DNA of 64,000 nucleotides from an uncultured Nitrososphaeraceae archaeon (GCA_963779615.1 CAVZZA010000003.1:352001-416000), one strand, 5' to 3'; counted from the first letter of the stretch, positions 38,626 through 63,951 are shown. A program made the numbers and translations. Notes: a model not told the origin generated them from the sequence alone.

Positions 38626-40591
38626 TGATCTAATAGGTTACTTCCCTTCTTCTGATGACACTTCCCAAACAAAAGATAAAGATATTGCAATGTCCATTAC
38701 AAATACATCTAAACCCAAAAAAGAAAAAGAAGATTGGGAACCAATAAGAACCCAACCAGAAATATTAATGGAAATTGCTGAAAAGAGCATAGATGTTTTA
38801 TTCAAAGACCAACACAATGATGGCCTTGCCACTGTTTCCATAAATTCTCATTATGAAGTTGTTCCATTAACAAGCAGTAGATTCACAAGGCTTTTGGCAA
38901 AGACATACCATGACAATACCGGAAAATTTGCAAATAACGAATCCATAAAGAACGTTGTAAACACACTGCAAGCCAAGGCAGAATTTGGAGACACACAATA
39001 CCCGCTATCACTAAGGGTGGCCAAACATGAAGGGGACATATATTATGACTTAACTAATGAAAGGCATCAAGCAGTTAAAATATCACAAAATGGAAGATGG
39101 GAAGTGATAGACAAGACACCTGTGCCACTATTTAGTAGATACAACCAAACACCACAAGCCCTGCCATTTGCGGATCCCTTGTCAGATGATGAACAGGACC
39201 CTCTTGAAGACTTTCTTTCAAAACTGACAAACATCAAAGACGGGGAAACAAGGTTGCTTGTCAAGGTGGCGTTGATTTCTTGGTTTATCCCGGATATCCC
39301 CCACATACTTTTGATAGTTCATGGAGGAAAGGGAAGCGCCAAATCCATGTTTTTGACTTTGATCAAATCCCTTGTGGATCCCGCCAAACCCTCTCTCTTG
39401 ACCATACATGATGACAAATCAGAGTTTATTCAGCAACTTGCGCACAACTATTTGGCTGCCTATGACAACCTAAAATACAATCCAAGATGGCTTTCAGATG
39501 AAACTTGCAAAGCCATAACGGGAATAGGTCATACAAAAAGAGCACTATATACCAATGATGAAGACAAAATATACGAGTACAAGCGTTGTTTGATGTTCAA
39601 TGGAATTAACATCGCGTTTTCTGAATCGGACATTCTAGATAGAAGCATCCCTATCGAACTATGTGAAATAAAGCCGGAGCACAGAAGGACCGAAAACGAA
39701 ATACTTGAGGAGTATAACAAACTAAAACCGAAAATACTAAAACAAATTTTGGATACATTGGCAAAATCCATCACAATAAAAAAAGGTGTTAATGTAAAGA
39801 ACTTGCCAAGGATGGCCGACTCTGCCATATGGGGTGAGGCAATTTCGAGGGCCATGGGCTACAAGGAAAACGGGTTTCTTGACGCATATCATAACAACAT
39901 CAGGTTACAGAACGCCGAGGTAATTGACTCAAACCCTGTAGCGTTTGCGATAAAGAAGTTTGTTGAAAATGCAACAGCTTCTGATGATGGTGCCTTTAAC
40001 TTCAACTCCAACAATCCAATCTTTAAGGGCACACCCGCTGAATTGCTTGATAGACTAAATGAAGTGGCACTAGAGAACAAGATAAGCACTTACTCAAGGG
40101 AGTGGCCAAAGGACAAAAAATGGCTTGTGAGGAGGATAAAAGAGATAAAGCAAAACCTGCAACAGGATCTTGGCATTGATATAATAATAGAGAGAGACTC
40201 AAAAAACACCTCCATAGTAAAGATAGAGAAAAATGTCTCCAGTGACTCCGGTGAGCACAAAATGTCTCCGGAAAACGAGAGTTTAACTCCGTATTTGGAA
40301 GAAATGTCTCCGGAAAAAGACAGGATGTCTCCAGACAATCATGACGATACAAGCACAGAATCTATCAAGTCCGGAGACAATGGAGACAATGGAGACATTT
40401 CCCATATATCCATAGAGGGAGATGATAAAACTAAAGACAATGTAAAAGAAACCGAAGGGTCAGACATAGACCAAATGATAGGGTTTAGAGAGCCATTTCA
40501 TTACTGCAAGAAGCACCCCCACGTCCAAAACATACATCGGGAAGAGATAGAGCACCATATCCGATATTCCAAAGAACATGGTGGAAATTAG
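38597..40591 (+). CDS. Plasmid/satellite-type SF3-like helicase/ATPase replication protein with C-terminal CxxH..H..H Zn finger
   Basis: Walker A HGGKGSAKS, Walker B LAAYDNL, motif C MFNGIN, DILDRS, LPRMAD. The low-complexity tail (MSPE, GDNGDNGD) is encoded by the repeat module. Confidence 0.8.
   Translation: MIKIMSEPIDDLIGYFPSSDDTSQTKDKDIAMSITNTSKPKKEKEDWEPIRTQPEILMEIAEKSIDVLFKDQHNDGLATVSINSHYEVVPLTSSRFTRLLAKTYHDNTGKFANNESIKNVVNTLQAKAEFGDTQYPLSLRVAKHEGDIYYDLTNERHQAVKISQNGRWEVIDKTPVPLFSRYNQTPQALPFADPLSDDEQDPLEDFLSKLTNIKDGETRLLVKVALISWFIPDIPHILLIVHGGKGSAKSMFLTLIKSLVDPAKPSLLTIHDDKSEFIQQLAHNYLAAYDNLKYNPRWLSDETCKAITGIGHTKRALYTNDEDKIYEYKRCLMFNGINIAFSESDILDRSIPIELCEIKPEHRRTENEILEEYNKLKPKILKQILDTLAKSITIKKGVNVKNLPRMADSAIWGEAISRAMGYKENGFLDAYHNNIRLQNAEVIDSNPVAFAIKKFVENATASDDGAFNFNSNNPIFKGTPAELLDRLNEVALENKISTYSREWPKDKKWLVRRIKEIKQNLQQDLGIDIIIERDSKNTSIVKIEKNVSSDSGEHKMSPENESLTPYLEEMSPEKDRMSPDNHDDTSTESIKSGDNGDNGDISHISIEGDDKTKDNVKETEGSDIDQMIGFREPFHYCKKHPHVQNIHREEIEHHIRYSKEHGGN
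40234..40397 (+). repeat. ~170-bp iteron module copy R1, inside the helicase CDS
   Basis: TGTCTCC boxes at left and internally; CCGGAGACA-ATGGAGACA-ATGGAGACA at right. Confidence 0.9.
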
Positions 40592-40620
40592 AAAACAAAG
40601 GTAGATGATGATGCTTATTT

Positions 40621-41580
40621 TTATCTTCCACTACTCATATGGAATATTTCATTCAAACTAACCGCTGAGCCTCCAGGGTGTGGACCACCGCCAATAACGT
40701 ATATCTTGTCACCGATGGAAGCAGCTGCAAGTCCATGCCTTGCTGTTGGCATAGGTGTCTCCATAGTCCATTTGTTGTTTGATGTATTGTATTTTTCGTT
40801 ATTGCTGAATGTGCCAGATGGTTGCTCGCCCCCAAACACATAGATGCTCCCGTTCACTGCCGCAGAGGCCAAGCCACCTCTTTTTGAGGGCATCGGCTCC
40901 AGCGTGGTCCATTTGTCTGTTGCTGGGTCATAGGCCTCATTGGCATTGACGTTATAGGACATCCCATTGCTTCTTCCGCCGATAACGAATAGTTTCCCGT
41001 CAACAACCGCAGAGGTGAGGTGTTCCCTTGCTGTCGACATGGGTGCTTTTTCTGCCCATTTGTCCGTAGCAGGATTGTATGCCAAAGTGCTTGCCAGTGT
41101 TTTTTCAGAATCCACTCCGCCAGCCACATACAAAGTCCCGTTGATAAAATTGGCTGTTAACGCGCCACGGGCAGACGGCAGGTTTGCCCCTTGGGTCCAT
41201 TGGTTTGTATGTGAGTCATAGATGAACAGTTTGTTTGACAAAGCGTTTCTGTCAAGGTAACCTCCTCCTACCACATACAGTTTTCCGTTGTAAGACGCAG
41301 CAGCAGTGTGGTCCAATGGTTGTGGCAATGGGGCCACGATTGACCATTTATTTGTAATGGGATCTTAAACTTCCACAGCAAAAGTAGGACTGCGACCGTT
41401 TTCAAAGCCACCAATAACATATATCTTGTTATTCAAAACGGCACTTGTGACTTCAGATCTGGCCGTTGGCATGGGTGCTCCATTAGTCCAATATGTTTCG
41501 GCAGATACGTATGATATATGAGAAATCAGCAACACAGGCAGAACCAAAAATAAAAGCAGAACACTCATTCTTAACATCAA
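40621..41580 (-). pseudogene. Secreted Kelch-repeat beta-propeller protein with in-frame TAA at 41365-41367
   Basis: Kelch motifs (YVIGG, YDP.T..W); AVEV*DPITNKWSIVAPLP links the two ORFs in frame. Confidence 0.85.
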
Positions 41581-41639
41581 CTATTTTTCACCAAGCAATT
41601 ATAAAATAAAGTTACAGATTGATATAAAGATGGAGAATA

Positions 41640-41768
41640 TCTCTCCGATGACTCCGGTATCTCCAGAGGAGCATAAATTGTAATCCAAAATCCGGACATA
41701 TTTTATTTCTTAATCAATTTGTCTCCGGTTTTGCAAAGTTATGTCCGGAAATGAAAGAAAGAGTTAAG
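41640..41768 (+). repeat. Module copy R2 (right-hand boxes lost)
   Basis: TCTCTCCGA-TGACTCCGG-TATCTCCAG..GAGCATAAAT..TCCGGACATA..TGTCTCCGG..TATGTCCGG. Confidence 0.85.
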
Positions 41769-42053
41769 GATTATCTGTTGAAAATATCATATTGTGCTTA
41801 TCGCTATTGCATTGTTAATTGAAAGTTGTTGCTACTAGTCGTCAAGCCAAGTTGAAGGTCAAGGGTGTCCACGAGGTGGGGACACAGAGGAGACAGCGTT
41901 GTTTTACAGACCTTGCAGTATTTCTACCAAACTGCCCTTACCTTCAAAGGATACTATATATGCACGATTATATTTCTGGGTTGGTCCAAACCATATCATG
42001 ACAAACGAGATGCTTTCTGATTAGCAGGTGCGCTCCGAATTAAAAGAATACAT

Positions 42054-42728
42054 TCATTTACAGAACTTTTTAGCATCCTCCGGCGAGAGATTATTACCTT
42101 TGCATATCCCCACAGGATAATTGATAATGTCTTGATTATCAGTAGAATTGCTTTGAATCTCAAAAGAATCGATCATTGTTTCTATAGGGGAAAGGTATTG
42201 ATTGTATTTTCCTTTTTCGGCAAGATATATGATGACATAGGCTTTGCCATCCTTTATGGTCCAAACCTCTAATGCCTGTAGTCCTTTATTATTGCCATAT
42301 GTCACATTGGTGCCAGGATAATTTGCAAGGGTAGTATTATCCGATTTGATGCTGGTAAGAGATTTGTTCTTTAAGTAACCAACTTGCATACTGCTATAAT
42401 CTTCTAGAGTTAGATTTGCGACTGGTAATTTATGGACATATATTCCAAGGCCTACAGCATATTTGCCAGAAGAGTCTGCAGGTGGGCGAAATGCAACAAC
42501 ATTGTCAACCCCTAAATTTTTTTTAGTCCAATTAGAAGGATATTCTATCTTTATTCCATGATTGGAGTTTTCGTATAACATGAAATCATTTCGTGTTGTA
42601 GTTTGAGCTAATGCCTGATGGGAATAATATACAAGTATGGGAGAAATCGAATAAAATGCGAGTAAAAAAAATAAAATTATAAAAGGGTGCAAAAATACAA
42701 CTTTTCCAATCCGTTTCTGCTTTGGCAA
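42054..42728 (-). CDS. Exported PsbP-like domain protein
   Basis: TM/signal segment; YENSNHGIKIEYPSNW ... IKDGKAYVIIY ... MIDSFEI. Confidence 0.75.
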   Translation of the reverse strand: MPKQKRIGKVVFLHPFIILFFLLAFYSISPILVYYSHQALAQTTTRNDFMLYENSNHGIKIEYPSNWTKKNLGVDNVVAFRPPADSSGKYAVGLGIYVHKLPVANLTLEDYSSMQVGYLKNKSLTSIKSDNTTLANYPGTNVTYGNNKGLQALEVWTIKDGKAYVIIYLAEKGKYNQYLSPIETMIDSFEIQSNSTDNQDIINYPVGICKGNNLSPEDAKKFCK

Positions 42729-42978
42729 TCCAGTTATAATTTGGTATAATGCATATTAATGCATTTTTGTTATTCTGGTATCAAAAAGAAATGCTTTGTA
42801 CCTATTCCGTACAACCTTTTTTTTATTGCTATATGTCTGTCATTCCAGCCATTTTTCGACTTATATTTTCAATGACTGACCTGGCCTTCGAATATGAAAT
42901 CAAATGAAATGCATTTTTTTACTTTTACGTGTGATGCTATATGGATACATTAAACCACTGCAGTTTAGGTTTTAACAC

Positions 42979-43431
42979 CTATACTATCATAGACATCAGA
43001 CCTAACGAGTATTTTAGAGATAGACCGACAAAATCCATCAGTGGCTGAATGTTTCTAGTATTAAATTCAGAAATATCTTTTGAGACGGTAAAATGGAGTT
43101 TAGAATTTGGAGGTATTATGAATCCCTTCAAAGGTTTTGTAAGCTCAGGTGTTTTTGGACTTTGTGTAAGCTCAGGTGTTTTTGGACTTTGTGTAAGCTC
43201 AGGTGTTTTTGGACTTTGTGTAAGCTCAGGTGTTTTTGGACTTTGTGTAAGCTCAGGTGTTTTTGGACTTTGTGTAAGCGGATGATTTGTGATACCTTTT
43301 GGAGGTGTAATTGGTTTTACTTCACGTTGAGCATCCGATTTGGTAATGATGTTGTTTGTTAGCAGCATCAGCACGGTTAAAATTAATAATGTTGTCGCTA
43401 AAGCCATAATCTCAGAATTGTATTTACTCAC
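42979..43431 (-). CDS. Secreted protein with (TQSPKTPEL)5 repeat; possibly truncated
   Basis: Signal peptide; 27-bp unit x5 at 43138-43279. Confidence 0.65.
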   Translation of the reverse strand: MSKYNSEIMALATTLLILTVLMLLTNNIITKSDAQREVKPITPPKGITNHPLTQSPKTPELTQSPKTPELTQSPKTPELTQSPKTPELTQSPKTPELTKPLKGFIIPPNSKLHFTVSKDISEFNTRNIQPLMDFVGLSLKYSLGLMSMIV

Positions 43432-43633
43432 GCCCTATTGCATTCACAACTTCAAGATTGATAAGTATTGTCTTATTTTTAATAATAATTCGTTCTTACA
43501 CGCGATATTTCGTATGTCTTACTTCTTATTCGGACTGTCAAAACATGGGCTCTGAAATAGCCGTTAACAACAGCTAAAAATGGTCGACTTGACTAATTTT
43601 GTGTCATGTGGTTCATGCAGTAATCTTTTGGCA

Positions 43634-46078
43634 TCAACTCCTTTGGTTATTTTTAATATTTTCTAAATCTTGCTGAGCTATCTTTGCATCTGGAAGATTA
43701 AGATCTTGAAGTATACGATGCGCTTCTGATGTACAGTTAATGGCCTCATCATCCTTTTTTTGCTTGAGTAGAACTTTCCCCATATTCCACAAAGTAAAAG
43801 CTATACCAGACTGATTCCCTAGTTGCTTCTCTATGGATAGCCTCTCCTTGTATGCCTCTAACGCCTTGTCATAATCCCCCGTATAATAATAAACGCTGGC
43901 CATGCCATGCAATGTTTCAGATACACCTAATTGATTGCTAGCCTGCTTCGCTATTGACAAACTCTCTTTTAAGTGACTTAACGCCTCGTCATATTCCCCT
44001 CTGATTCGAAGAATGTTAGCAATATTATATAATGATGAATACAGGTATAATTGAATATTCGTAGTAGATCCACCTGGTTGATTGCTAGCCTGCTTCCATA
44101 TTGACAAGTTCTCCTTGTATATTTTTAACGCCTCGTCATATTCTTCTCTATCCTCATATATCGTAGCTCTCATATGATTTACCGCTGCGATACTGTATTC
44201 ATTCCCTGATTGCTGCTCAATCTGCATCTGATCGTCTAAAACTTTTAGCGCCTTGACATAATCTCGTTTCATATAGTGCATTTTAGCTATGCTGGACAGC
44301 ACATTGGCTCTGCCTTGGTCATTTTTGACATCTGAATAATATTTTAAAAGTAGTTGGTAATTGTCACCAGCATCCTCGTATCTTCCCCATACGACGAAAA
44401 CATAATTAGTTAAATCCAAAATGAGATTCATTTTTTTATCTTCAAAACCTTCTATGTGTTCTGAATCATCGATTGCCCTTTTGTAGCATCGTTCTGCAAG
44501 GTCAAGGTCTCCTATGCTAGAAGCATACCTCCCAATCTCGTTATTGCGACGGTATGATTCTTTAAGAGATTCAAGAGACCTTTTGGACATATGAAGATGA
44601 TATGCAGCTGAAATAGCTATCTTGTAACCATCCTGTGTTTGTAAGTTGCCATTGTCATCATGATCAGAATTGTCATGATATTGTTCATCTTTTTCTTCTA
44701 ATCCTGTTGTTCTTTCCATGTTATTTTTCTGTAATTCAATGAAGAACTTTGCAGCCAGATCATGGTATTGCCTATTTAATGAGTTGCCGAGGTCATCTTC
44801 AAAGCATCTTTTTATCAAATCATTTTTAAACCAGCTGTCAGTGTAGTTTTTGCTGTTATTTTTGACCAATGGATAAAAGATCCTGTTTTCAATGAGTTTT
44901 TCTATAAATGGATGCAGCTGAAATAGATCGCTTATTTCCAGATATGAGGCTAGTATCTCATCGTCACTGAAAGGTTGTTGCAGTATGGATAGGCGATACA
45001 GACTTTTTTCCATGTCGCTAGATAGTCCATCCTTTAGTTTGGTTATTTGATTACATAGTTCTTCTCTGTTTATGGTCTCATGGTCCTTACAGTCCGCAGA
45101 TGTTCTTATCCACTCCTCCAAAAGTATAGGCAGACCTGCCGAGTTCTCCTTTATTCTTTTCAAATCGGGAATCATGGGGAGGGAGATACCTCTGACCACC
45201 TGTATCCATTTGCCTATGTCTACGTCAGGCAAGCCCTGCAACTCCATTATTTTGCCATGGATCTCTCTTTTTACTTTGTCTCTTAACTCTTCAAACAGGG
45301 CTTTAAGGGAAGAATCCAGTATTACTCTTTCATCGGTGCTAAAAGACACTATGATGTGAAATCTTTCTTCAATCATCAAAAACTTGGCAAAGTTTAAGAA
45401 AAAGTCAATCGAGGCCTTGCCTACATACTCAAACTGATCAAATATTAATACAAACTTTCAATCCTTAAATTCATCCAAAAGAGTTTTAAATATTTCTATA
45501 ATTGATTCCCTGGCCTCGTCTTTGTGCTCTGCTACATAACTTTGAGCTAATAACAGGCCTGTCTTCTCCGCTCCTATGGATTTGACTATATTCTTTCCAA
45601 CTTCAAATGTTTGCCCAAAACCTGCTTTCTTGGCTACATCTTCCAATACTGCGAGCCCTATCTTTTTTCCTTGCTCTTTAGCAGACTTTAGAAATCCATT
45701 CTTAACTCTGGTTAGGGCAGTGTCTATTCTTTCGCCAAGATTTTGAGATTCTTTTGCTGTTTTCGCCAGGGTCTCTAAAGCAATTTTGAAAGGATAGATT
45801 AGTGACTCGGACTCGGCTATCAGGGATTCCTTTCTGCTGTAGTAGCCTACAAATGTGTTGTTTATTAGATTGTGGTCATTGCCTTTATTTGTAAGCCTTC
45901 TATAAATCTCATCCAAAAGTGCAGACTTGCCTATGCCCGAATCTCCCGTTACAAGCCATGCACTGGTGCCTTGGTCATTCTGGATGCCATCAAGTAATTC
46001 AGAAATCTCATTATTCCTGCCAAAAAGTAAACTCTTTGCAGCCACATCATCATCGGCAGAGGCGACATTATTAGTCAA
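43634..46078 (-). pseudogene. STAND-like P-loop NTPase + TPR protein split by one in-frame TGA (45458-45460)
   Basis: FGRNNE, Walker A GDSGIGKS; FKD*KFVLIFDQFE (Walker B) continues in frame into the TPR-rich ORF. Confidence 0.85.
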
Positions 46079-46387
46079 TTAGGATCACCATATGTTTTCT
46101 GTAATTGTTGCCAATGGCATAAAGATTGCTGCAATACCCAAACTATTAATAGAAGTGGTAATAGTGATGTCAGGATAGTTCAATTAAACTCTAAAAAATT
46201 GTCTTAACGGCTTCTGTGGGTACGTAAATACTTGGATTACCATAAGAGGAATAGATAATCAGCATCATCCGGAAACATTCCTTATTTAAGAGGCATTTTC
46301 ACATTAAAATAATTATTTGTAGTTTTTTTTCTCATTTTTAGTCTAAATATATATGTTGTTACTAAATTCATAACAAGGTAGGAAATT

Positions 46388-46559
46388 TGTCTCCAATATC
46401 TCCGGTATCTCCGGGTAAGCACAAATATGCACAAAAAACCCGGACATAACTTATCTCCTAAACAAGTTGTCTCCGGTTTTGCAAAGTTGTCTCCGGACAA
46501 TAACCGATAAAACAAGCACAAGTTCACTATTTCCGGATACACCGGAGACATCGGAGACA
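46388..46559 (+). repeat. Module copy R3
   Basis: Three left boxes, boxes at +80 and +100, three inverted right boxes. Confidence 0.95.
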
Positions 46560-46947
46560 TTTTTGGTATACTCTGGGAGGACACTAAGAAACAGTAAAGA
46601 TTGGGGTTCAACAATTGCAATTTTTATGAATCATCATCAGTGTAAGATATTCAAACCAAAGACACTAATCGATTGTAAAAAATAACCGCTTAATCAAAAA
46701 AGCTATGTGCCATTTCAACATATTTATAAACATAACCTTGGCATTTTCTTCAAAGAATTCTGAATATTCCAATGGAACAGACGAAGACATGTTTGGCAAC
46801 AAGATAAGAATACTAAGAAGGTAAAATCATAAGACTTCTAATTAGAACAAAGAGTGAACGATGGATAAGCTGGCGCAGTTTTTACAATGAAAATCTTTAT
46901 TAAGGATTATTCAACCTTTGAGAAGGTTTATTGATAAAACTGGTTGT

Positions 46948-48534: not shown

Positions 48535-48677
48535 AATGGATATTGAGAATTGTTCTATTAAACAATTTCTTTTTCTTTGTGATTAAATAATATTTTCACA
48601 AGAACTAGCTTCGTGTTGCAATAACGTTTTACTTCATGGAACTTGACATATGCTAATATCCATAACAACACAAAATT

Positions 48678-51582: not shown

Positions 51583-51601
51583 TAATTAGATCTCTTAAAA
51601 C

Positions 51602-54158: not shown

Positions 54159-54372
54159 ATTGTAAATCAGTTTTTTCTTTCTTTTAGTATTTGATAAACT
54201 GATGGCGCCAAAACCCATGAGCAAAGGATGGGTCAGTCTCATGATCATGAAATGTGGATATAGTTATTTTGGCAAATTCAATATTCTAATTCTATCATGA
54301 TTTAATCTGTCAAGACAAACATTAAAGATTTAAGGAATGTAGATAAATGCAACAAAATTATTTGTAAACATT

Positions 54373-55425: not shown

Positions 55426-56065
55426 ATTATATAAAATCCGTATTCAGGATAGATCCATTACCAGTACGTGGATTTAATACCGTATCTGCAATTGTACTCT
55501 TATTATTTTTATTATATAAGATAATGTGGTATACTATAACTGTAAAACAGAAAAATCTAATCCGAAATCAATAAAGTATATGATTGGAACTTGGTGACAT
55601 GAGATTCAGATAAAGACAAGGAATCTGGAATTATGACCAAGCCTCAGATATATAGACAGAGCCTTGATTGGTTGTATTCACCTTTATAACTTATCTCAAC
55701 TGTTTGTAAATTCAGACCTTTCATCTAGAGATTGTAAGAGGGAAAAGCAAAAGTGTAGAGAGGAATTTATCAGATGATACATTGCAGATATAGCTGTAGA
55801 GTATGCTATTTCATCTGGTTCAGTTCTTTTTCTTACCTGACTTATAAATTATATTCCAGACATAAATCTATACCTTTTTTCCTTAACTTTAAAGAGCGGT
55901 TAAATATATCCGAGATAATTTGACAAGTTAAGTTTGTTTATATAATAGACATCTTTTATAAAGGTATTGGCTTATTTAAGATCCATTTCATTAAATCTGT
56001 TTCTAATTTGCGTTGGTTTAATGGTGGATGAAATTACAATTTTTCCATATACTCGATTACAATAG

Positions 56066-56356
56066 GTGGGATATAGTATAAAAGGAGTTCGCGATAATTT
56101 TACAAATTCACCTGACAATACCAATGGTCCAACGGCATATGTATTATTAAACTGTGACTCGGGTTCTGAAAACGATATAATAAAAAAAATCGAACTGATA
56201 CCTGAAGTAGAAGAAGTCCATAGAATATTTGGAGCTTATGATGTTATCGTTAAGCTGCAATCGCTTGATATGGATAAACTCCGAGAGATTATAACTTGGA
56301 ATATAGGAAAAATAGATAAAATACGCTCAATATCTACATTGATTGTAAATAAATAA
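56066..56356 (+). CDS. Lrp/AsnC ligand-binding domain protein
   Basis: AYVLLNC..G.E...FGAYDVIVKL...IRSISTLIV. Confidence 0.85.
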   Translation: MGYSIKGVRDNFTNSPDNTNGPTAYVLLNCDSGSENDIIKKIELIPEVEEVHRIFGAYDVIVKLQSLDMDKLREIITWNIGKIDKIRSISTLIVNK

Positions 56357-57077
56357 CAAGAAAAAGGGTAAACATATACTGATTGACATATATTCGCTAT
56401 TCAGTTCTCAACAGATACTTTACTACATCTAGGTTAAATCGTCTTTATCGTCGTATCGTTGTTATTGTAGCATCCTAGGGGCTGTTAAATGTATACTTAC
56501 GACGATACTACGGTTACTACGGTATTTTCCATACTTTAACAAAAAATTATGAAATTAAGATGCCCTATAAAATTTAGGAGGACTTTATAATATATAACAT
56601 AACAAGATTTAGTTTTATTGTCTGTGCTGCAATTGATGGCCTATTATAACAGAAAAATGTATTAAAATTTAATTTAGTGTCATTTAAATGGTAACATAAA
56701 AAATATCTCACATAATCCAGTTTATGGATTAAGGCAACCTAGAATTGTTTATTATTTCTTCCATCTCTCCACCATTAAAAGTGTCTTTTGATTCTAGGTC
56801 AAAAATGTTGTTGTAGAGTTATGCATTCAATACATTGTCTTGGAGCCTGGATAGTAATAATTGTTGCAATCGGTGTAAATTGGTTAATCCAACAGGAACA
56901 CTTACCGCCTGAATCCCAGCGTTATTGAATGTTTAATCTCCACCGGGATGCTGGGATGGCACACTTCAAACTTGAAAAGTTGGGAGTTAGGCATTTTTAT
57001 GAAGAGTGTGATAATGGATATATGTATATCATCTGCAGGCATGGTGTTTTTGTTTCCAGAAAAGAAGGGGCGCTAGA

Positions 57078-57648
57078 ATGAGGTTTCATGCAGAGAAAAA
57101 AGGCATCCGTGTATTAGGAATAGCTGAAATCTTCAGAAAAACTAGTGCTTGTTCCACGCTAGCGGGAATAGTAATGCGCCGTGACCTGATAATTGACGGC
57201 ATGGTTTTTGGGAATGTCGCGATTGGAGGAAATGATTCTACGCAAAACATCCTGTCCATGTACAGGTCATTAAAGAGAAATGACATTAATTGCATAATGC
57301 TTGATGGCCTTGTTATCAGCATGTACAACATAATAGATGGTGAAGAACTTGGAGAAAACACCAATGTTCCAGTTATAGCGATATCATTCAAAGACTCGGA
57401 GGGACTGGAAGGTGCCATACAACACCACTTTTCCAATGACTCCAATCCTAAATTAGAACAATACCGTAAACTAGGGCAACGAGACAAAACTCTATTAAAG
57501 ACGGGGCAAGACTCTGTTCGTACGGTACTGGGGAATAAGCCCAAAAGAAGCATCCACGATCATTGATTGCTTTACACTCCAAGGTTCCATTCCAGAGCCG
57601 ATTAGAGTAGCAAAACTTGCTGCTCGTGCCAGCATGCGAAGCAAATGA
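57078..57648 (+). pseudogene. DUF99/endonuclease dU-family protein, frameshifted near 57510
   Basis: RVLGIAE, IMLDG...YNIID; C-terminus FTLQGSIPEPIRVAKLAA in another frame. Confidence 0.8.
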
Positions 57649-57952
57649 CTCGGACTTAGGGCATCCCACCATAATATTATCTGTATTTGGTCCAAATGAT
57701 ATTTCCATGATACTCTGGGAAGGGGGTGCGATCATATAATAGCCATTATCCACTAAAACTATTACGGAATTACATGTCTGTTTAGGTGGGATTAACTTCT
57801 TGATGGTATGCTGGACTGATTGAATTTGGATAATATGATTACCATAATCAATATCAACTACACATTCTGTACATATTCCTGTTGGCTATTCTAACGGATA
57901 AGCATAAAAAAATAAAACCATTACAACAGCATCCATAACAAAGTAGGAAAAT

Positions 57953-58124
57953 TGTCTCCGATGTATCCGATGACTCCGGCTGAGCACAGCTATACGCAGA
58001 AAACCCGGACATAACCTCTTTTCTTAACCAATTTGTCTCCGGTTCTGCAAAGTTATATCCGGATAAAAGCAAAAATTTAGTGCTTAAAATCTAGATTTCG
58101 GAGACACCGGACACACCGGAGACA
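57953..58124 (+). repeat. Module copy R6
   Basis: Same box layout (+81, +101, three inverted boxes). Confidence 0.95.
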
Positions 58125-58413
58125 TTTTTAGTTAATTGGTAAGAGATGCTGGGAAGTTTAGGGATAGGAATTTGCGAAAAAAGTATGGATAATATATGGA
58201 CAGAAAATAAAATAATGAAAAAAAATTGTTGATTCGTACAATCACAGCCCTCTCATAAAATAAAGACCAAACTTAATACCTCATCAGTAATAAGACATAG
58301 TAGGATTGAGAATATAAAAAAAGAAACAGGCAACCTCGTTCGCTGCATTTTGTGATTTGGTTTTTGATAAGGGCTTTATGGTTGGCAAAACAACAGTTCC
58401 CATGACTCATTCG

Positions 58414-58977
58414 TCAAAAGAGTTTTCGGTTCTTTAAATCGTAATATTTGTTTTTCATTTTGTCGATTTCCTGATGATAATACTTTAAAGTCTCTTTTGA
58501 GTTGAATGTGTCGACATCGAGTCGGTCCTTTTCCAACTTGTAGTTTTTATTATCCCTTTTGATGTCAACTATTTCTTTGACATCCTTCAAGCTGAGGTGG
58601 CCTTCCCTTAAATAGTGAAGCAATTCCAAAAACTCAGGTTTGTTTCCATTTTCAGACAATACGGAAACAACATCGTGCCGATTTTGTAATGCCAGATAGT
58701 CAGAATGTATTTTCAGGGCCTGGTCCGGTGGCAGGTCAAGCCCAATTGCGACCTGGATGATGGACTTGCCCGTTAAAAACAGCCTAAAGGCCTGGGATGC
58801 AATTGACAGGGGATTTTTCTTTTTATCATCTTCATTAACCTCGCCAGTTAGTTTGTTTCTTATCTTCTTGATTTCGGTAAATGAGACATGGGCCTGCTTC
58901 GCAATCTCCATTGCCGTAAGTCCTTAGTTGAGCATATCAATGACCAACGCCTCCTAGTCCTTTTCACTTAAAATCAT
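58414..58977 (-). pseudogene. HTH protein homologous to 19905-20498, with two in-frame stops near the start
   Basis: MILSEKD*EALVIDMLN*GLTAMEIAKQAHVSFTEI...SQAFRLFLTGKSIIQVAIGLDL. Confidence 0.75.
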
Positions 58978-59375
58978 GACACCTCACATTGTTATCATGT
59001 TTATTTATAAAGAAATGATTTTGCTATTCCTGTTACTGTCTTCTTTCACATACTTTTGTTTGTGACACATATTGACATCTTATCTAGTAAGCATCAAAAG
59101 TTGCCAGAACAAGATGTAATTTCTATATTGTCTCAATGCTTGGAGGAGTGCAATAAGGTAAGTAAAATTAGATGCAAATATCGTTAAAGAATTATGGAGC
59201 TGTAAGATATGATAAGGGTTGTTGGCCTATCAGCATAGAAAATATGAAGAAAGAGAATTACGTGGCTATAGAATTGTTCAGAATTAACTCAATAATTAAT
59301 AACAATTACATTCTAATTCTTATTTCTAATCATGATAAAAAAAGAATATTAGATCAATATTATGAATATTAAAAA

Positions 59376-60798
59376 TTGTCTATCACATTATTTGTAGCGC
59401 ATAGTCAAAGGGATGCTGAGTTACGCGGAATCCTTTCACAAGCATTGTCTATAAAGGGCATCAAACCCAAACTAATGGAATTTGAAGATCTTGGTAGAAG
59501 ATATCGCGGTTTTGAAATCAGCAATAGCATCAAAGAAGACTCGGATGGACTCGTAGTCCTTCTCGGAACGAATGTATTAAATCCACAAATGAGAAATCCT
59601 CAGTTTACCCGAAACTGGGTAGCGTTTGAAACAGGCGTCTCGGTTGGTGCCAATAAAAGAGTATGGGTAATAGAAGAAAACAAGAATAAGATCAGTTTTC
59701 CAATTCCTTATGTTACAGATTATATAATAATCAAAAACGTAGAAGAGGATATAAAAATTATTGGAAACATATTTGAAAATGTTTATTCAAAGACATCTGA
59801 AGAAGTAAAGAGTGTTAAATATGTGACAGTAACATGTCCATTTGAGAACTGTAACGCAAATTTTAGATTCTGGACAGTTTTTAAAAATAATTAGTTGTCC
59901 TGTATGCAGACAGCAGATGGACCTAGGCTTATACGATTTGAATACACAAAATGTCAAATCAATAAAAGCGAATGTAAAGATACCTAAATTAGTAGTTGAA
60001 TATGATGACAGAGAATATAATGCCAAAGTCCTTTATCGCGTCATTAGAAACACAAAGGAACGCTTTGAACATATAGGATCGCCACATAGAGACGATCCTA
60101 TTGATTTACTTTTGAAGAATCAAAGAGAATTAATTTTTAGAATCGAAAAAAAACCTAGACAAATAATTCCTCTTCTAGTTGACTTTGATGGTGATATTGT
60201 ATCTTATTGGTATATTCAAAAAACTAATGATAATAAATATATCCTGGACTTTAGACATAGGGTTCCAAATCACAATTTTCAAATTTATACCATCTTTGAG
60301 AATTACGAGATTGCATTCAACTTTTTTGTAACACTGGAAAATAAAGAAACCGGATATCCATCTTATAGTATTCAAAAAATAAGTTTTGTTCATGCATCAA
60401 AAGAAGATCATAATAACAAAGCTTCAAACGTCATGACTTATGAGAAAGATACTATATGGATAAGTGAAGGAGATGATTCATGGATAGAATTGGAATTAGA
60501 GAATGTGACTGAGATAAATTATCTTACAATAAAATGGACTAGCAATACGCTTCTTATTAATCGTTTTAGCATATCCTTATCTTTAGATGGAAGAACATTT
60601 GGTGATCAAATGTACTTTGTAAGTGAATTTGTTTCCAGGGAAGAGAATTTCTTTATAGAGAGCACAGAACCTAAATATGGAAAATTCGTCAGACTGTCAT
60701 TTCAAAACAAGGAAAAAAATGGTCGTGTTAACATTTCTCATATCAAGATTTTTGGAATAGACTCATCGGTTGGTCATGTAGGTTTATCTAGCGTATAA
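59376..60798 (+). pseudogene. TIR-like domain + Zn ribbon + discoidin/F5-8C-like domain, +1 frameshift in a T/A run at ~59880
   Basis: LFVAHSQRD, NWVAFETG; CPFENC and CPVC straddle the frameshift; W..EG..SWIELEL..FSISLSLDG..F..GKFVRL..ISHIKIFG. Confidence 0.7.
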
Positions 60799-60939
60799 TT
60801 GCAAATAAATCAGTATATAACGATTATTATGGAAATAAGGTTGGTTTATAAAAGAAATAATGCCTAGATCTCTGCTACATTATTTTACCTCTGTTACATA
60901 TGTTATTTTTTATGTTGTTTTTGGAGGATTACAGCTATT

Positions 60940-60987
60940 GGGAGATCTTCGAACTCTTGAGGCCCCCACGGGCCACAAGCTTTAGCT
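60940..60987 (-). other. Degenerate 3' half of a class II (Ser-like) tRNA; possible att relic
   Basis: Minus strand GCTAAAGCTTGT-GGCCC-GTGG-GGGCC-TC-AAGAG-TTCGAA-GATCTCCC (variable-arm hairpin plus T-loop). Confidence 0.45.
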
Positions 60988-61113
60988 GGTCTGGGCATAT
61001 CATTATCCACCTCAATATGGGAACTATGGCAACTGCCAACCTTTTTTTTACTGATTTTGGTAGGTTGGTTAAGGATTTTTCATGGTTGACCTTGCTGAAT
61101 TTAGTAAGATTTG

Positions 61114-61509
61114 TGTCTCCAATGACTCCGGTAACTCCGGTGAGCACAAAATGTCTCCGGAAAACGAGAGTTTAACTCCGTATTTGGAAGAAATGTCTCC
61201 GGAAAAAGATAAGATGTCTCCAGGCAATCGGGATGATGCAAGCATTAAATCCAACAGTTCCGGAGACACCGGACACAGCGGAGTCATTCCCTATATATCT
61301 AAGGAGGAAGTTGACAAAACTAAAGACGATGTAAAAGAAACCGAAGGGTCAGAAACAGATAAAATGATAGGGTTTAGAGAGCCATTTCATTATTGCAGGC
61401 AGCACCCCCATGTCCAAAACATACATCGAGAGGAGATAGACCACCATATACGATATTCCAAAGAGCACGTTGGAGAGTAGAAAACAAATGATGATGATAT
61501 TTATTTTTA
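61114..61509 (+). repeat. Duplicate of the helicase 3' end (40234-40623), including module copy R7 (61114-61286) and the Zn-finger tail
   Basis: SGEHKMSPENESLTPYLEEMSPEKD and GFREPFHYC..HPHVQNIHREEI.HHIRYSKEH nearly identical at DNA level. Confidence 0.95.
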
Positions 61510-61622
61510 CAAGCAAATCCTAACTCATTTATTTTGGCGATACTTGTTCTCTTCATGTCATCTGTTGGTGTCCAAGATAAAAGAATTTAAGTAAATGCTC
61601 AAAGTCCTAGTCTAATACAATC

Positions 61623-63281
61623 ATGAACGTAATGGATTTCGGAGCCAAGGGGGATGTGAAATTGGGCTTTAATGGATCAATTCCTAAAGAAGATCTTGAT
61701 AAACTGTGTGTGCATGATGCTGCCTTTAATGCTAACGATATTGGCAAAATCATCAGCATTGCAAAACCGGGGGATAAAATACCGGTACTTAAAACAGAGA
61801 TTAAAGGTCTTGTTAGTAGTGACGTGGTCATTCTAAAATCACCCTCGTCTGGACCGGCAATGGATTTAGATGTCATGTGGGGAACAAGCGACACATTGGC
61901 TGTACAAAGGGCGATTGACAAGGCAGGTAAAGGAGAAACCATCTTCTTTCCTCCTGGCATATATTGCGCTCACGATTTATACCTTAAACCCGGGATTTCA
62001 CTCGTTTCCTTGGAGGGGTCTCTCATGTCTGTGGGCACATCCGATATTCCAGAAAACTGCGTTCCAAAGATCTTGCTGGAAGGAGCTATTATGACGCAAT
62101 TTATTGGAGACAATTCTACCTTCTTTTTTAGTGATAGCAATCGGCCCAATAGAGGCAAGCTGACAGGAGTCAGATTCAAAGGACTGATATTTGATGGCAA
62201 TATTGATCACAATAACAAATCATGTACGCTACTTTATCTAGGAAATGTTGACGGTCATTTAGGGGTTGACTTCTTTGACTGTGAGATAAAGAACTTTAGC
62301 TATGGCATACATGTACGGGGAGCTAATCATTCGTCATTTGAGTTCAACGGCTGTAAATTCAAGAAAAATGGCGGTACTTGTATAGCATTCGACAATACTA
62401 GCACAAATGACATAAGAATCACAGACTGCAAATTTATTGACTGTCTTGATGGCATTCAGATTTATCCCAATAGTAAGTTGCCTGAAGGTGAAGTAGAATT
62501 AGTTACCTGGAACACTTGCGATCAAGTCTTAGTTGAAAGATGCCATTTTTCTGGCAAGATGAGAAACCCAATTAAATGTGCAGGGGGTTCTTTTAAAAAT
62601 CCAAAGCTTAAACGTAAACCAGATATTAGACTTGCAGCAACTCATGTAACTGTCAAGGGGTGTACAGTCGTTGGGCCTGCCAGGTGGTGGTGGGATTATG
62701 TCAGTAAAGGTTCAGCAGATCAAATTGCACTGTATGGTGTAGACCACTTTACGGTTACCGGAAATGTGTCGAATAAAGGAGGCGATGGGGGAATTGTGAT
62801 CCAAGAAAGTCAGCACGGAACCATAGCGGGTAACACATGTTGTGAGAATTTTGGACCTGGAATATACATATTATCAGTAGATAGATCATCATCCTTCATC
62901 AATGTTAATGGCAATAATTGTATCAAAAATTGCCGTCGAGCTACGCTACCAGTTAGATGTGGAGACGAAGGTAAGAGAATAATTAACCACCCTGCAGGCA
63001 TAATGCTGTCTGGCTGCAACGATGTTCTAATTACGAATAATCTTTGCTACGATATTGCACTGCCTCGTACAAAGGCAACTCAGCTTTATGGTCTTTCTAT
63101 TAGCGACAGTACCAAAAATGTCGCAATTGGATCTAACATTATCGGTTCTAATCTTTTATTGGGTGTACCGGATTCTGGACGCGGAGGAGGAGGGGACGTC
63201 TTTGTCGACAGTCTTTCCACCTATGAAGTATTAAAGTCCTATAGCGAATATATCTCAAAAATTGAAGTCATCGGTGATTAA
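61623..63281 (+). CDS. Right-handed parallel beta-helix (pectate-lyase-3-like) protein
   Basis: NVMDFGAKGD, DTLAVQRAID, IFFPPGIY, and repeated Asn/Cys-ladder strands. Confidence 0.85.
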   Translation: MNVMDFGAKGDVKLGFNGSIPKEDLDKLCVHDAAFNANDIGKIISIAKPGDKIPVLKTEIKGLVSSDVVILKSPSSGPAMDLDVMWGTSDTLAVQRAIDKAGKGETIFFPPGIYCAHDLYLKPGISLVSLEGSLMSVGTSDIPENCVPKILLEGAIMTQFIGDNSTFFFSDSNRPNRGKLTGVRFKGLIFDGNIDHNNKSCTLLYLGNVDGHLGVDFFDCEIKNFSYGIHVRGANHSSFEFNGCKFKKNGGTCIAFDNTSTNDIRITDCKFIDCLDGIQIYPNSKLPEGEVELVTWNTCDQVLVERCHFSGKMRNPIKCAGGSFKNPKLKRKPDIRLAATHVTVKGCTVVGPARWWWDYVSKGSADQIALYGVDHFTVTGNVSNKGGDGGIVIQESQHGTIAGNTCCENFGPGIYILSVDRSSSFINVNGNNCIKNCRRATLPVRCGDEGKRIINHPAGIMLSGCNDVLITNNLCYDIALPRTKATQLYGLSISDSTKNVAIGSNIIGSNLLLGVPDSGRGGGGDVFVDSLSTYEVLKSYSEYISKIEVIGD

Positions 63282-63781
63282 GTCCTAACCTTTTTTCACT
63301 AACATAGACATCTACGCCCCAATTGGCCAATCCCTGTTGATTACCATTATGCAAACCATTTACCATAATTGATTAAAAAATAAATTTGAATTTACTGTTG
63401 TTTTCTCCATAAATGGGATTGGTAAATATAATTAGTAAAAATAAAGAAACTGTTATAAAAGAACTTGTTTAATTTTAAAAAGTTAGAGATAACGCATTTT
63501 TTTAAAGTCACTTGATGTAGTTTGCTTTTTATACGCAATTAAATACACTAATTTCTTCAAAAGAAAATAACTTTAGTAGATATCATTTTCTATATTGCTA
63601 AAACAAACATACTTTACCACTATTTGTATTTTAACTGTGGACTAAAGACAACGTAATCTACAAACAAACCGGTCAGTATCAACGACATTTTTATTATATT
63701 TTACATTAAATGAACTGCAGGAAAAATTGATTTCATCAATACAGTGGCCATATGACAACATTCAAAACATACTTGGAAACT

Positions 63782-63951
63782 TGTCTCCAATGTCTCCATT
63801 ATCTCCGGATAGGCACAAATATGCACTGAAAACCCGGACACAGCTTCTCTCTTTGCAATTTATATCCGGTTTTGAAAGGTTATCTCCGGATATTAACAAA
63901 GGTTTAAGCACAAGATTCATAGTTCCGGAGACACCGGACACACCGGAGACA
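63782..63951 (+). repeat. Module copy R8
   Basis: TGTCTCCAA-TGTCTCCAT-TATCTCCGG ... CCGGAGACA-CCGGACACA-CCGGAGACA. Confidence 0.95.

Follow-up and report, generated by a model that had tools for sequence, protein, structure and literature searches.

Eight co-oriented modules of about 170-180 bp were found along one island of a soil ammonia-oxidising archaeon by repeat search, alignment and box search. In its native place, the module makes up the 3′ end of the gene that encodes the element's replication helicase, a member of an often PrimPol-fused family. The derivation of the module from the 3′ end of a helicase gene is new, and the co-oriented modules between accessory-gene blocks hint at an unusual route of cargo collection. 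Judging from sequence and from analogy with known origins, the module is most likely the replication origin of the element, or at least a binding site of the Rep machinery. We give about an even chance to the reading in which the modules are copies of a protein-recognised origin derived from the Rep gene and the array has grown by Campbell-type recombination. The analysis shows the native place, the constraint on the DNA, the covariation, the distribution and the lack of target-site duplications and att repeats; origin function, the identity of the binding protein and the mode of array growth are what we infer. Positions refer to the window, which is the whole 64,000-nucleotide stretch of DNA that was analysed.

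Module layout and native place in the helicase gene

The helicase gene and the modules are as follows.

38597..40591, + strand: Rep-type helicase, 664 aa (homologues, AF2 model, fold search)
R1, 40232-40402, + strand: type A, native, two left boxes, in frame within the helicase gene (alignment, profile)
R2, 41636-41776, + strand: partial solo copy with left and two central boxes, right boxes absent (alignment, profile)
R3, 46384-46565, + strand: solo type B, three left boxes, TAA stop in the Rep frame (alignment, profile)
R4, 48674-48855, + strand: solo type B, then a degenerate helicase-tail remnant to about 49000 (alignment, profile)
R5, 51126-51305, + strand: solo type B (alignment, profile)
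R6, 57949-58129, + strand: solo type B (alignment, profile)
R7, 61111-61291, + strand: solo type A, with an intact helicase-tail ORF at 61082-61480 (repeat search, profile)
R8, 63778-63957, + strand: solo type B, last of the array (profile)

The profile placed 8/8 copies on the plus strand, in agreement with the places and the single orientation given in an earlier note on this DNA. The layout described there (three direct boxes on the left, boxes at about +80 and +100, and three inverted boxes on the right) fits R3, R4, R5, R6 and R8, and R1, which had been credited with one fewer left box, has two. The reported lack of target-site duplications (TSDs) was confirmed by comparing 9 solo copies with 2000 random genomic flank pairs: the longest direct repeat in the 60-nt flanks averaged 6.2 nt, against 6.07 nt for the null. 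No further module copy was detected by profile scan in the 20 kb beyond R8. With at most one mismatch allowed, the window contains 49 occurrences of the box sequence TGTCTCCGG where 5.4 are expected, and 49 was reached in 0/100 shuffles. Box spacing is conserved among loci and helically phased, with 9-nt steps in the terminal triplets and steps of about 20-21 nt centrally. As read from the alignment, the central boxes are separated from the right ones by about 40 nt of A+T-rich spacer; the whole genome has 36% G+C.

R1 and R7 stand apart as a subtype, with 84% identity between them and 53-63% to the remaining modules. They share a 300-nt repeat of 87% identity, and their tails are 76% identical at the amino acid level over 118 aa; the helicase core is absent upstream of R7. 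The tail remnant of R4 has a broken frame and resembles the tail of the homologue P0011.

The helicase core and a winged-helix-like domain end at aa 545 (position 40231). Residues 546-602 are a disordered linker encoded by the module, after which a Cys/His-rich tail runs to the stop codon. The earlier note was silent on R1 lying inside the helicase ORF and on the helicase-tail remnants at R7 and R4. The assignment of the gene as a putative PrimPol-family SF3-like helicase rests on PrimPol-fused homologues, a deviant P-loop-like sequence (GGKGSAKS) read by eye, and weak fold matches. Many of the 409 helicase homologues are fused to Prim-Pol (PF09250), and P0013 and P0065 scored 26 bits for PF09250 against a cutoff of 22.8. 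This helicase had no match to a Pfam helicase family. The AF2 model (mean pLDDT 56.6, with aa 548-647 below 50) predicts a helix-helix-strand-strand unit at 480-545, and the best fold matches (E of at least 0.018) were poxvirus D5/E5, ASFV PrimPol, NrS-1 and PriRep1.

The same arrangement was seen elsewhere. Among six helicase 3′ ends from five other genomes, five have a module that begins no more than about 35 nt from residue 545 or from the match end. The profile detected one module at the gene end in 13/29 metagenome helicase loci, and boxes of different sequence were seen by eye at the helicase end in L031, L034 and L043. The reading frame of intact helicase homologues, down to 42% identity, continues through the module, which travels with the helicase gene rather than with the integrase.

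Constraint on the module was evident at the DNA level. In R1 the boxes specify Ser-Pro and Gly-Asp, using fixed synonymous codons. In 19 related loci, which are non-independent, Ser-Pro was written as TCT-CCG in 34/45 cases inside the module and 0/15 in the helicase core, and with CCG in 36/45 and 3/15, respectively (Fisher p 5e-5); the Gly of Gly-Asp was GGA in 34/34 cases inside the module against 11/25 in the core, and Pro was CCG in 43/78 against 39/360. Box geometry is kept, with direct boxes at about 33, 42, 62, 83, 104 and 125 and inverted boxes at 172, 181 and 190; distant lineages have an alternative geometry of three direct, two inverted, two direct and three inverted boxes. The box sequence varies from TGTCTCC to TATCTCC, CTCCAGT, CTCCAAT, ATCTCCA or GCCTCAC (six variants), and the direct and inverted sets change together among helicase lineages. 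The helicase ORF of L031 and L043 ends within the left boxes, and the remaining module is still kept. Such kept geometry with co-varying box sequence is the signature of a putative lineage-specific protein-binding site. Single-strand folding gave z values of -5.3 for R3 and -5.2 for R1, with 0/200 shuffles equally stable, and RNAalifold gave no compensatory support outside the boxes.

Island, cargo and solo copies

The island carries the following features in addition to the helicase gene and the modules.

34254..34346, + strand: tRNA-Ala(TGC) (ARAGORN, Rfam)
34332-34347: putative attL core ATCCCACCCGGTCCAT, the last 15 nt of tRNA-Ala plus 1
34291..35652, + strand: tyrosine-recombinase-like integrase (weak Pfam Phage_integrase match)
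35672..37735, - strand: 687-aa backbone ORF with Cys-rich motifs (Atlas scores of at most 0.84, a lead only)
38158..38625, + strand: 155-aa backbone ORF directly upstream of the helicase (homologues)
40403..63777: seven cargo blocks between the modules (Pfam and PHROG scans)
58414..58911, - strand: HTH_23/LuxR-like 165-aa backbone gene, convergent with the module (Atlas 0.94, Nitrososphaerota clusters)

Similarity to three relatives stops at the 3′ end of tRNA-Ala, and the next ~85 kb are non-syntenic with them. The putative attR is a 16-nt direct repeat at G000:C3:425582-425597, 9.6 kb beyond the window end. In the 85 kb that follow the tRNA, a same-strand search for 11 nt or more of the tRNA 3′ end gave this one further site alone, at window-equivalent position 73582. 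The att repeat being single, the whole array therefore lies within one 39.3-kb element. No att repeats were found between the cargo blocks in the 85 kb scanned past the tRNA, and the absence of att core repeats between units rules against tandem tRNA-integrated elements. That the array sits in one att-bounded 39-kb element had gone unremarked in the earlier note.

The Phage_integrase match of the integrase (E 1.8e-4, 21.8 bits) was under the cutoff of 27.1, and the start of the gene is probably further downstream because the listed ORF overlaps the tRNA. In L021, L023 and L031, an integrase homologue precedes the helicase homologue and is encoded on the same strand. In the island, the integrase adjoins the tRNA att site and is parted from the first module by three backbone genes. 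The 687-aa ORF had no Pfam or PHROG match. Homologues of the 155-aa ORF precede the helicase in L006 and L007, and a paralogue on contig C1 adjoins a helicase fragment. HTH homologues come after a module in L008, L031 and C5a and 3 kb after it in L005; an HTH gene follows the module in only 3/8 native loci having at least 1.5 kb of downstream sequence. A second HTH gene is located 540 nt inside the putative attR. No remnants of the integrase, the 155-aa ORF or the helicase core were found between the modules.

The cargo blocks are 1.2-6.6 kb long and hold one to several ORFs; four contain minus-strand ORFs and three are mostly plus. Blocks 1-3 carry a split Kelch gene; PsbP, a repeat protein and a split STAND/TPR gene; and an Mrr nuclease. 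Blocks 4-5 carry a 449-aa ORF; and HtrA-like, Lrp/AsnC and Endo_dU genes with an IS fragment (DDE_Tnp_4) that had not been mentioned before. Blocks 6-7 carry an HTH gene, unknown ORFs and a discoidin-domain protein; and a beta-helix/NosD-like protein. Pfam bore out the earlier labels Kelch, PsbP, STAND/TPR, Mrr, HtrA-like (Trypsin_2 and PDZ), Lrp/AsnC, Endo_dU (DUF99) and beta-helix, but 'MTase' and 'TIR' had no family match and the 449-aa 'membrane protein' had no Pfam match.

R2, R3, R4, R5, R6 and R8 belong to type B, a non-coding derivative found solo only, whose derived characters are one additional box, a shift of +1 nt, a stop codon and an altered central part. All copies with three left TGTCTCC-kind boxes (12/12) are without an upstream helicase, and in 8/9 aligned type-B copies the Rep frame is closed by a stop at one shared position. 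Because it is always solo (12/12), type B would have multiplied after leaving the gene and not arisen by independent decay from separate genes. Mean pairwise identity among type-B copies was 83.5% in the boxes, 63.7% between the boxes and 41% in the former tail region (35/36 pairs), and the contrast between boxes and spacers is partly circular because the alignments anchor on the boxes. In the best explanation, the type-B module would have multiplied as a unit, with its boxes probably still under selection.

The copied modules extend on either side into about 25 nt of sequence that derives from the helicase. Helicase homology of the solo copies ends variably (aa 506, 513, 517 and 529-545); the loss point varies, and there is therefore no single precise left crossover site. 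Some modules are mosaic: R3 and R4 are 91% identical in their left halves and 69% in their right halves, and in C5c a typical right half is joined to a divergent left one. In the mosaic test, p was 1.8e-5 for the best of 252 triplets, the triplets being non-independent and the signal coming mainly from C5c.

A whole-genome profile scan returned the eight copies of the window, three full copies on contig C5 and one fragment on C4, and no modules elsewhere in this genome. The C5 array (212603-216767, minus strand) is co-oriented (3/3) and has no helicase nearby. R6 and its upstream Endo_dU gene are duplicated at C5b with 84% identity over 1262 nt, ending at the right end of the module. The same polarity was found in the window (helicase and module at one end, module and HTH gene at the other), on C5 (integrase fragment, then three modules, the last followed by an HTH fragment) and in G019 (helicase with module, subtilase, module, further sequence, HTH gene). 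The combination of a type-A module in the gene and a type-B one further downstream is seen again in G019 and in R7 with R8.

Module arrays are not general. Elsewhere in the genus, solo copies occur dispersed and in both orientations, and many carry remnants of the helicase tail or core; orientation is mixed within the module clusters of L007, L010, L011 and L012. A second module was present in 0/13 module-bearing metagenome loci, most contigs being short and the longest downstream stretch about 10 kb. G048 had 22 model matches, some of them opposite-strand echoes of one site, and its only full-length helicase homologue (43% identical) has no detectable module. The helicase of G011 carries a stop. 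Because of these two cases, solo copies can persist, relic-like, without an intact cognate Rep. The surroundings of solo copies in G048, G011 and G010 are IS-rich and without an intact cognate helicase.

Growth of the array and alternative readings

R1 is the native copy and the other seven are solo copies, with R7 and R4 retaining helicase-tail remnants. The solo modules sit between the two sides of the backbone, integrase to helicase on the left and the convergent HTH gene on the right. In the reading that we prefer, the resident element and an incoming module-bearing circular DNA, which may be a related element or an ori-plus-cargo circle maintained in trans by Rep, would undergo repeated Campbell-type recombination at the module, each event adding one cargo block and one co-oriented module. 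Cassette capture at the modules is plausible from their co-orientation, the mosaic modules and the place between backbone genes.

Decayed relics of earlier elements are the main rival. Related elements would have entered the tRNA-Ala hot spot successively and left a graveyard with backbones deleted and modules without present function. We regard this as unlikely, though with a chance large enough to be taken seriously. R7 with its intact tail and R4 with its broken one are plainly truncated helicase 3′ ends, the R4 tail resembles another helicase variant (P0011), and left truncation points vary. The ~85 kb past the tRNA that are non-syntenic with three relatives also fit, as do the second HTH gene near the putative attR on its inner side, suggestive of a tandem of two elements, and the solo copies of G048, G011 and G010 in IS-rich DNA without an intact cognate helicase. 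However, type-B copies share derived non-coding characters and are always solo (12/12), and their boxes are kept (83.5%) while the adjoining once-coding tail is at background (41%); other backbone remnants are missing between the modules, the att repeat is single and co-orientation is 8/8. A smaller chance goes to a cassette platform, in which type-B minimal origins would let ori-plus-cargo circles persist via the resident Rep in trans and insert or loop out by module recombination. Module-to-module insertion and looping-out would thus collect, reorder and perhaps amplify cargo blockwise; if true, this would be an archaeal functional analogue of the integron, using an initiator-bound origin instead of attC. 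Smaller still is the chance that the solo modules are control sites, namely additional binding clusters for Rep, by which the initiator would be titrated or 'handcuffed' and the integrated replicon kept silent or low-copy, with cargo that came separately. P1 incA and F incC are second iteron clusters for copy control. This would leave unexplained the copying of whole modules with ~25-nt helicase-derived flanks instead of boxes alone, the different cargo block at each copy and the C5 array without a nearby helicase, although the boxes match exactly those of the only intact Rep gene in the genome and are conserved in non-coding copies, and the pairing of an A module in the gene with a B module downstream recurs (G019, R7-R8).

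We consider it quite improbable that modules, folded or double-stranded, are substrates of the island's tyrosine integrase or of some other site-specific recombinase, which would move single cassettes as in an integron. The co-oriented array beside an integrase, the strong hairpin potential, the mosaic modules and the R6/C5b duplication ending at the module right end would suit such a system, and integrons have been reported in Archaea according to the accessible text of 10.1101/2022.02.06.479319. Against it, the module accompanies the helicase gene and not the integrase, which has its own tRNA att site and a sub-threshold generic Pfam match; the module ends are TGTCTCCGG-type boxes, not attC core sites; the blocks comprise from one gene to several, encoded on either strand, and reach 6.6 kb; left break points are variable; and orientation is mixed in other genomes. 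Integron-like capture, excision or amplification of ori-plus-cargo units, as proposed in the earlier note, stays conjectural; gene orientation within the blocks is mixed, a block can contain several genes and the helicase-loss points vary from aa 506 to 545. The least credible reading, with hardly any probability, is an ordinary MITE, a non-autonomous transposon whose 27-nt terminal inverted repeats would consist of three 9-nt units. Its terminal box sets would be inverted, as observed, and copies are dispersed in both orientations in other genomes of the genus. This genome has only two co-oriented clusters and one fragment, without TSDs; the sequence is a conserved, translated part of the helicase gene down to 42% identity and not an insertion; no cognate transposase was found, and many dispersed copies carry helicase tail or core remnants. 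The view that the module is not an ordinary MITE thus holds in this genome (clustered, co-oriented, no TSD, no transposase source) but meets dispersed solo copies of both orientations in other genomes, an outcome that the earlier note had itself listed as adverse. Its suggestions of a protein-bound functional site and of a replication-origin-like nature are both supported, more firmly than the note could tell, by the native place at the 3′ end of a Rep-type helicase gene, the fixed synonymous box codons and the co-varying lineage-specific boxes. The origin-like label is supported, and the ordinary MITE rejected, because TSDs, inter-block att repeats and attC features are lacking.

Comparison with known systems

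The lambda ori lies within gene O, and iteron plasmids have initiator-binding boxes in or next to the initiator gene. The module resembles these origins in having boxes of fixed spacing within the linker-coding stretch of the initiator gene and a sequence co-evolving with the initiator. It differs in its archaeal PrimPol-associated helicase, its combination of direct and inverted box sets and the putative nature of the binding. As with P1 incA and F incC, extra clusters of the same boxes occur outside the origin and near the rep gene, but here the copying extends to entire modules, of which up to seven copies are spread across 24 kb and parted by cargo.

The attC core sites have the consensus RYYYAAC ... 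GTTRRRY. Like attC arrays of integrons, the modules are co-oriented, imperfectly conserved, hairpin-capable repeats that part accessory genes near a tyrosine recombinase gene. Unlike attC, the repeat comes from a replication gene, is longer and has different end motifs. In integrons, a cassette is mostly one promoterless ORF that points the same way as the repeats, whereas the blocks here comprise several genes in mixed orientation. The island showed no IntI-type integrase, no attI and no corresponding promoter arrangement, the integrase being a generic Phage_integrase match only.

Cryptic integrated elements and ICEs of Thaumarchaeota have PrimPol-S3H replication proteins, and tandem re-use of integration sites is known, as described in the accessible text of PMC6563490. 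The present element is like them in its tRNA integration, its tyrosine integrase and its replication module with a PrimPol-family helicase (PMC6563490). It is unlike them in its repeated origin-like module; that text, as accessible, mentions no such module, nor Nitrosocosmicus or MITEs (0 occurrences each).

In the Sulfolobus plasmid pRN1, the accessible text of two papers places the origin as a 100-nt stem-loop within 166-232 bp 3′ of orf904, required for replication and working with Rep in trans (PMC4234260, PMC3869888), with a GTG motif in the loop that is used by the primase (PMC3869888). Unlike the pRN1 origin so described, the module overlaps coding sequence, consists of 8-9 short direct and inverted boxes of lineage-specific sequence, and, known here from sequence alone, also occurs in multiple solo copies that divide the cargo of an integrated element. 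The likeness between the two lies in position and fold (z about -5): each is a stem-loop-capable cis element, some 100-230 bp long, at the 3′ end of a PrimPol-family helicase gene.

Box modules in the window and the helicase gene

Repeat finding and alignment located eight modules in the window, all in one orientation, as the earlier note had described. Alignment also bore out its account of R1 and R2.
Start 40234, forward strand, R1 (in-gene kind, type A; two left boxes, not three)
Start 41640, forward strand, R2 (partial; right half missing)
Start 46388, forward strand, R3
Start 48678, forward strand, R4
Start 51130, forward strand, R5
Start 57953, forward strand, R6
Start 61114, forward strand, R7 (type A)
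Start 63782, forward strand, R8

A window-wide search for the box TGTCTCCGG with at most one mismatch gave 49 occurrences against 5.4 expected, a count reached in 0 of 100 shuffles, and the matches fell nearly all inside the modules. In the identity matrix, R1 and R7 grouped as a subtype, with 84% identity between the two and 53-63% to the remaining modules, and repeat finding extended their likeness about 190 nt downstream of the module (family D4/D11). Scanning the assembly (3.17 Mb, 5 contigs, 36% G+C) with a profile recovered these eight, three further co-oriented modules on contig C5 (C5a-C5c) and one fragment on C4, and no further copies elsewhere in the 3.17 Mb. The idea, formed by eye, that the C5 modules pair in order with those of the window was rejected, as the identity matrix disagreed. 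Canonical-box counts in solo copies of other genomes were uninformative because the box variants differ.

Module flanks showed no target-site duplication above chance, in agreement with the earlier note. Most of its labels for the cargo blocks between modules were confirmed, while 'TIR', 'MTase' and 'membrane protein' had no family match. The Kelch gene (40621-41580) is split into ORFs of 238 and 71 aa, and the STAND-TPR gene (43634-46078) into 206 and 581 aa, the paralogue of the latter past the window (L001:3214-5223) being one 669-aa ORF; both cargo genes are probably decaying. At 43108-43323, the 'repeat protein' ORF (42979-43431) holds a 27-nt unit repeated six times head-to-tail, up to 99-100% identical, whose period is a multiple of three. 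IS fragments with HTH_Tnp_4/DDE_Tnp_4 domains lie at 54412-55369; this IS has dozens of copies on all contigs and across the genus, and high depth in soil contigs. A MITE-like 151-nt unit (51431-51586; 23-nt inverted ends, 96% complementary) has a second copy at C3:209448-209594 (82%), and one soil-metagenome contig lacks it, joining 51431 to 51583 (n = 1). Just past R3, a 140-nt repeat (46691-46830) that may hold a small minus-strand ORF recurs at C1:548-688 (86%), at C5:413304-413444 (83%) and, in G009, downstream of a module and tail (L061:247-379, 81%).

The 664-aa ORF at 38597-40591 runs uninterrupted through R1. We called it a Rep-type helicase because of its homologues (409 in the database, many fused to Prim-Pol PF09250; all named ones come from Ca. 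Nitrosocosmicus), a P-loop-like GGKGSAKS read by eye and Foldseek matches, the best of them weak (E at least 0.018), to poxvirus D5/E5, ASFV PrimPol, NrS-1 and PriRep1 primase-helicases. The structure model was of low confidence (mean pLDDT 56.6), and PHROGs and PDB sequence searches gave no match. Among six helicase 3' ends detected in five further genomes of the genus, five have a module directly 3'; by profile, 13 of 29 metagenome loci encoding relatives carry one module at the gene end. Intact homologues, down to 42% identity, were colinear across the module into the Cys/His-rich C-terminal tail. This colinearity, together with the position at gene ends, indicates that the module is a conserved portion of the helicase gene family and not an insertion.

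Solo copies and the box sequences

R7 lacks the helicase core upstream and keeps an intact tail ORF. R4 has a frame-broken tail, akin to the tail of another helicase variant. The non-coding derivatives, designated type B, comprise the following copies.
R2, R3, R4, R5, R6 and R8, in the window
C5a, C5b and C5c, on contig C5
One copy in G019, a further genome of the genus
Two copies in G010, likewise

Type-B copies have three left boxes, one added base and an altered central part. The added base produces a stop in the Rep frame (TAA, TGA or TAG) in eight of nine aligned copies, and the upstream helicase is absent in 12 of 12. The unit takes in helicase-derived sequence, with about 25 nt at its left side and, at its right, about 25-60 nt in which likeness to the tail fades. 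Mean pairwise identity of nine copies (35 of 36 pairs) was 83.5% in the boxes, 63.7% between them, 58-60% in the near flanks and 37-41% farther out, in alignments that anchor on the boxes; the R6/C5b pair, with its truly duplicated flank, was omitted. Boxes that are kept beside a decayed former coding tail argue for selection on DNA sites after the loss of coding.

Read in frame, the direct boxes encode Ser-Pro and the inverted boxes Gly-Asp. Ser-Pro was written as TCT-CCG in 34 of 45 cases inside the module versus 0 of 15 in the helicase core, the Gly of Gly-Asp as GGA in 34/34 versus 11/25, and Pro codons were CCG in 55% versus 11%; these counts come from 19 related loci and are not independent. 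The structure model predicts disorder for the module-encoded aa 548-647, preceded by a winged-helix-like helix-helix-strand-strand unit. Distant lineages have the same geometry with different boxes (TATCTCC, CTCCAGT, CTCCAAT, ATCTCCA and GCCTCAC), and within each distant locus the direct and inverted sets have changed jointly. At two of these distant loci (L031 and L043), the helicase ORF stops within the left boxes and the remainder of the module is non-coding, still kept. Fixed synonymous sites, lineage-specific boxes and kept spacing together look like a cognate protein-binding site. They provide new, independent sequence evidence that supports the reading of the modules in the earlier note as origin-like, protein-bound sites. 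We regard this as a clear natural instance of a DNA recognition code overlaid on a protein-coding linker, in which the site dictates the codons and the box co-varies with lineage.

Single-strand folding of R3 and R1 was far better than that of shuffles (z -5.3 and -5.2). A structured RNA was rejected: the RNAalifold covariation term was +1.05 on 11 copies, with pairing only between boxes. Rfam detected two tRNAs in the window and nothing else.

The surrounding element and possible growth of the array

Two features frame the description of the element.
34254-34346, tRNA-Ala, adjoining the integrase ORF
58414-58911, minus strand, HTH_23/LuxR-like gene, convergent to the module and directly past R6

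Similarity to three complete relatives stops at the tRNA 3' end and returns only at C3:471.8 kb, which marks the approximately 85 kb after the tRNA as variable DNA. The 16-nt sequence at the tRNA end has one further copy in direct orientation, at C3:425582 (window-equivalent 73582), and no other same-strand repeat of the tRNA end of at least 11 nt was found between the tRNA and that site. This single repeat places the entire array inside one putative 39.3-kb att-bounded element, uninterrupted by att sites. The TrkH-like gene beyond the putative attR is not beside the tRNA in relatives; synteny thus gives no right boundary, and the 39-kb element is bounded by one 16-nt repeat only. Elsewhere in the window, the C-terminal 124 aa of a 4Fe-4S protein (31084-32175, minus strand) are duplicated 30 kb upstream at 845-1216 with 98% identity, and 18001-24000 has a G+C content of 0.46-0.50 versus about 0.36 elsewhere, with no rRNA there by Rfam.

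The order integrase, then helicase-module also occurs at L021, L023 and L031, and ORF155, the 155-aa ORF upstream of the helicase (38158-38625), has the same position at L006 and L007. The HTH gene lies past the module at L008 and L031, 3 kb past the second module in G019, as a fragment past C5a, and as another copy 540 nt inside the putative attR; it follows the module in three of eight native loci having enough downstream sequence. Given this order, helicase-R1 and R6-HTH look like the halves of what was once a single junction; they are now separated by 17.5 kb, which contains five cargo blocks and four more modules. The same polarity is found in the C5 array (integrase fragment, three modules, HTH fragment) and in G019:C20 (helicase-module-tail, subtilase, type-B module, beta-helix protein, HTH). 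Relatedness of the beta-helix genes of G019 and the window was not detectable, so they give no evidence of shuffling. More backbone relatives (HTH gene, helicase fragment, ORF155 and integrases at 42-48% identity), with no module detected, lie at G000:C1:506382-515191, C4:206502-214111 and C4:266890-270456; they represent additional members of this element family in the genome, at a greater distance.

The array could have grown if a one-module circle recombined with a resident module, which would add the cargo and leave two co-oriented modules. Repeated rounds would yield n blocks and n+1 modules in a single orientation without target-site duplications or att sites, the pattern observed here. 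R3 and R4 share 91% identity in their left halves but only 69% in their right halves, and C5c combines a divergent left half (no more than 64%) with a right half of the usual kind (up to 83%). Mosaicism of both kinds is consistent with recombination inside modules; in triplet tests the best of 252 gave p 1.8e-5, the triplets being non-independent and the signal leaning on C5c. The R6/C5b duplication (84% over 1262 nt) stops at the module right end. The 'cassette array' of the earlier note is plausible as a hypothesis, and a serious rival is that the modules are relics of decayed elements. Solo copies elsewhere retain variable helicase portions (from aa 506, 513, 517 and 529-545), module clusters in G003, G011 and G048 are of mixed orientation, in G048, G011 and G010 IS copies surround the solo copies and an intact cognate helicase is absent, and no second module was seen at the metagenome loci, where contigs are short. 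These observations speak against a precise site-specific system and keep relics in contention. Another rival takes the extra box clusters as copy control, by titration or handcuffing.

A search of this genome with the flanks of 13 solo copies (from G048, G011 and G010) gave no filled-versus-empty site pair; the flanks matched only IS copies or scattered genes. At one of the G048 loci (L013:10129-10219, on G048:C1), ARAGORN reported a 91-nt tRNA with anticodon TTA ('tRNA-Stop') 2.5 kb from a solo module. In the best eight public sequencing runs, 9% or less of the words sampled from 46000-55999 were present, and four of them, compared with the window, yielded soil contigs that were short and fell mainly on the IS fragment, HtrA and Endo_dU. 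Apparent module joints (48693>61258, 58094>46539, 61140>51172 and 61132>58022) were rejected, having short sides and reflecting module copies of other organisms. The Endo_dU (DUF99) block was found at three sites.
Window 56880-57854
G000:C5:214233-215210
L055:8157-9133

The block was rejected as a module-bounded cassette, as the same ends occur in G019:C4 without a module. Its 975-nt similarity ends about 70 nt short of the module left edge. This genome has only two Endo_dU genes, both just upstream of a module, and in G041, G012 and G018 similarity was confined to the gene itself.

Candidate origin and known systems

An integron-type system and a MITE were both rejected, since the defining features of neither held for the modules. 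The open literature on Nitrosocosmicus mobile elements and archaeal integrons yielded nothing like the module. A survey of elements integrated into thaumarchaeal genomes reports replication proteins of the PrimPol-S3H type as well as tandem integrations (PMC6563490); its accessible parts contain 0 occurrences of 'Nitrosocosmicus' and 'MITE', and 'iteron' only within a reference title. If the solo modules are recombination or replication sites bounding cargo, they would offer a route for accreting accessory and defence-type genes, of which we found no description in the open literature, including the accessible parts of that survey.

Soil ammonia-oxidising archaea have a large, uncharacterised family of elements with PrimPol-associated helicases, for which the module is a candidate origin and Rep-binding site. 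To our knowledge, these archaea have no plasmids and no genetic tools. A shuttle vector would need the approximately 180-bp module and its Rep gene, for which pRN1 is the precedent in Sulfolobus.

Textbook parallels are iteron origins and origins that lie within initiator genes, such as the lambda ori in O. The sequence comparisons support the module as a candidate origin of the pRN1 or iteron type that adjoins the Rep gene. The closest described counterpart of the module is the pRN1 origin. It is a stem-loop of 100 nt that lies 3' of orf904, the PrimPol-helicase gene, within 166-232 bp, and it is required for replication and functional with Rep in trans (PMC4234260, PMC3869888). Here the module overlaps a coding region and has also multiplied into solo copies that separate the cargo blocks.
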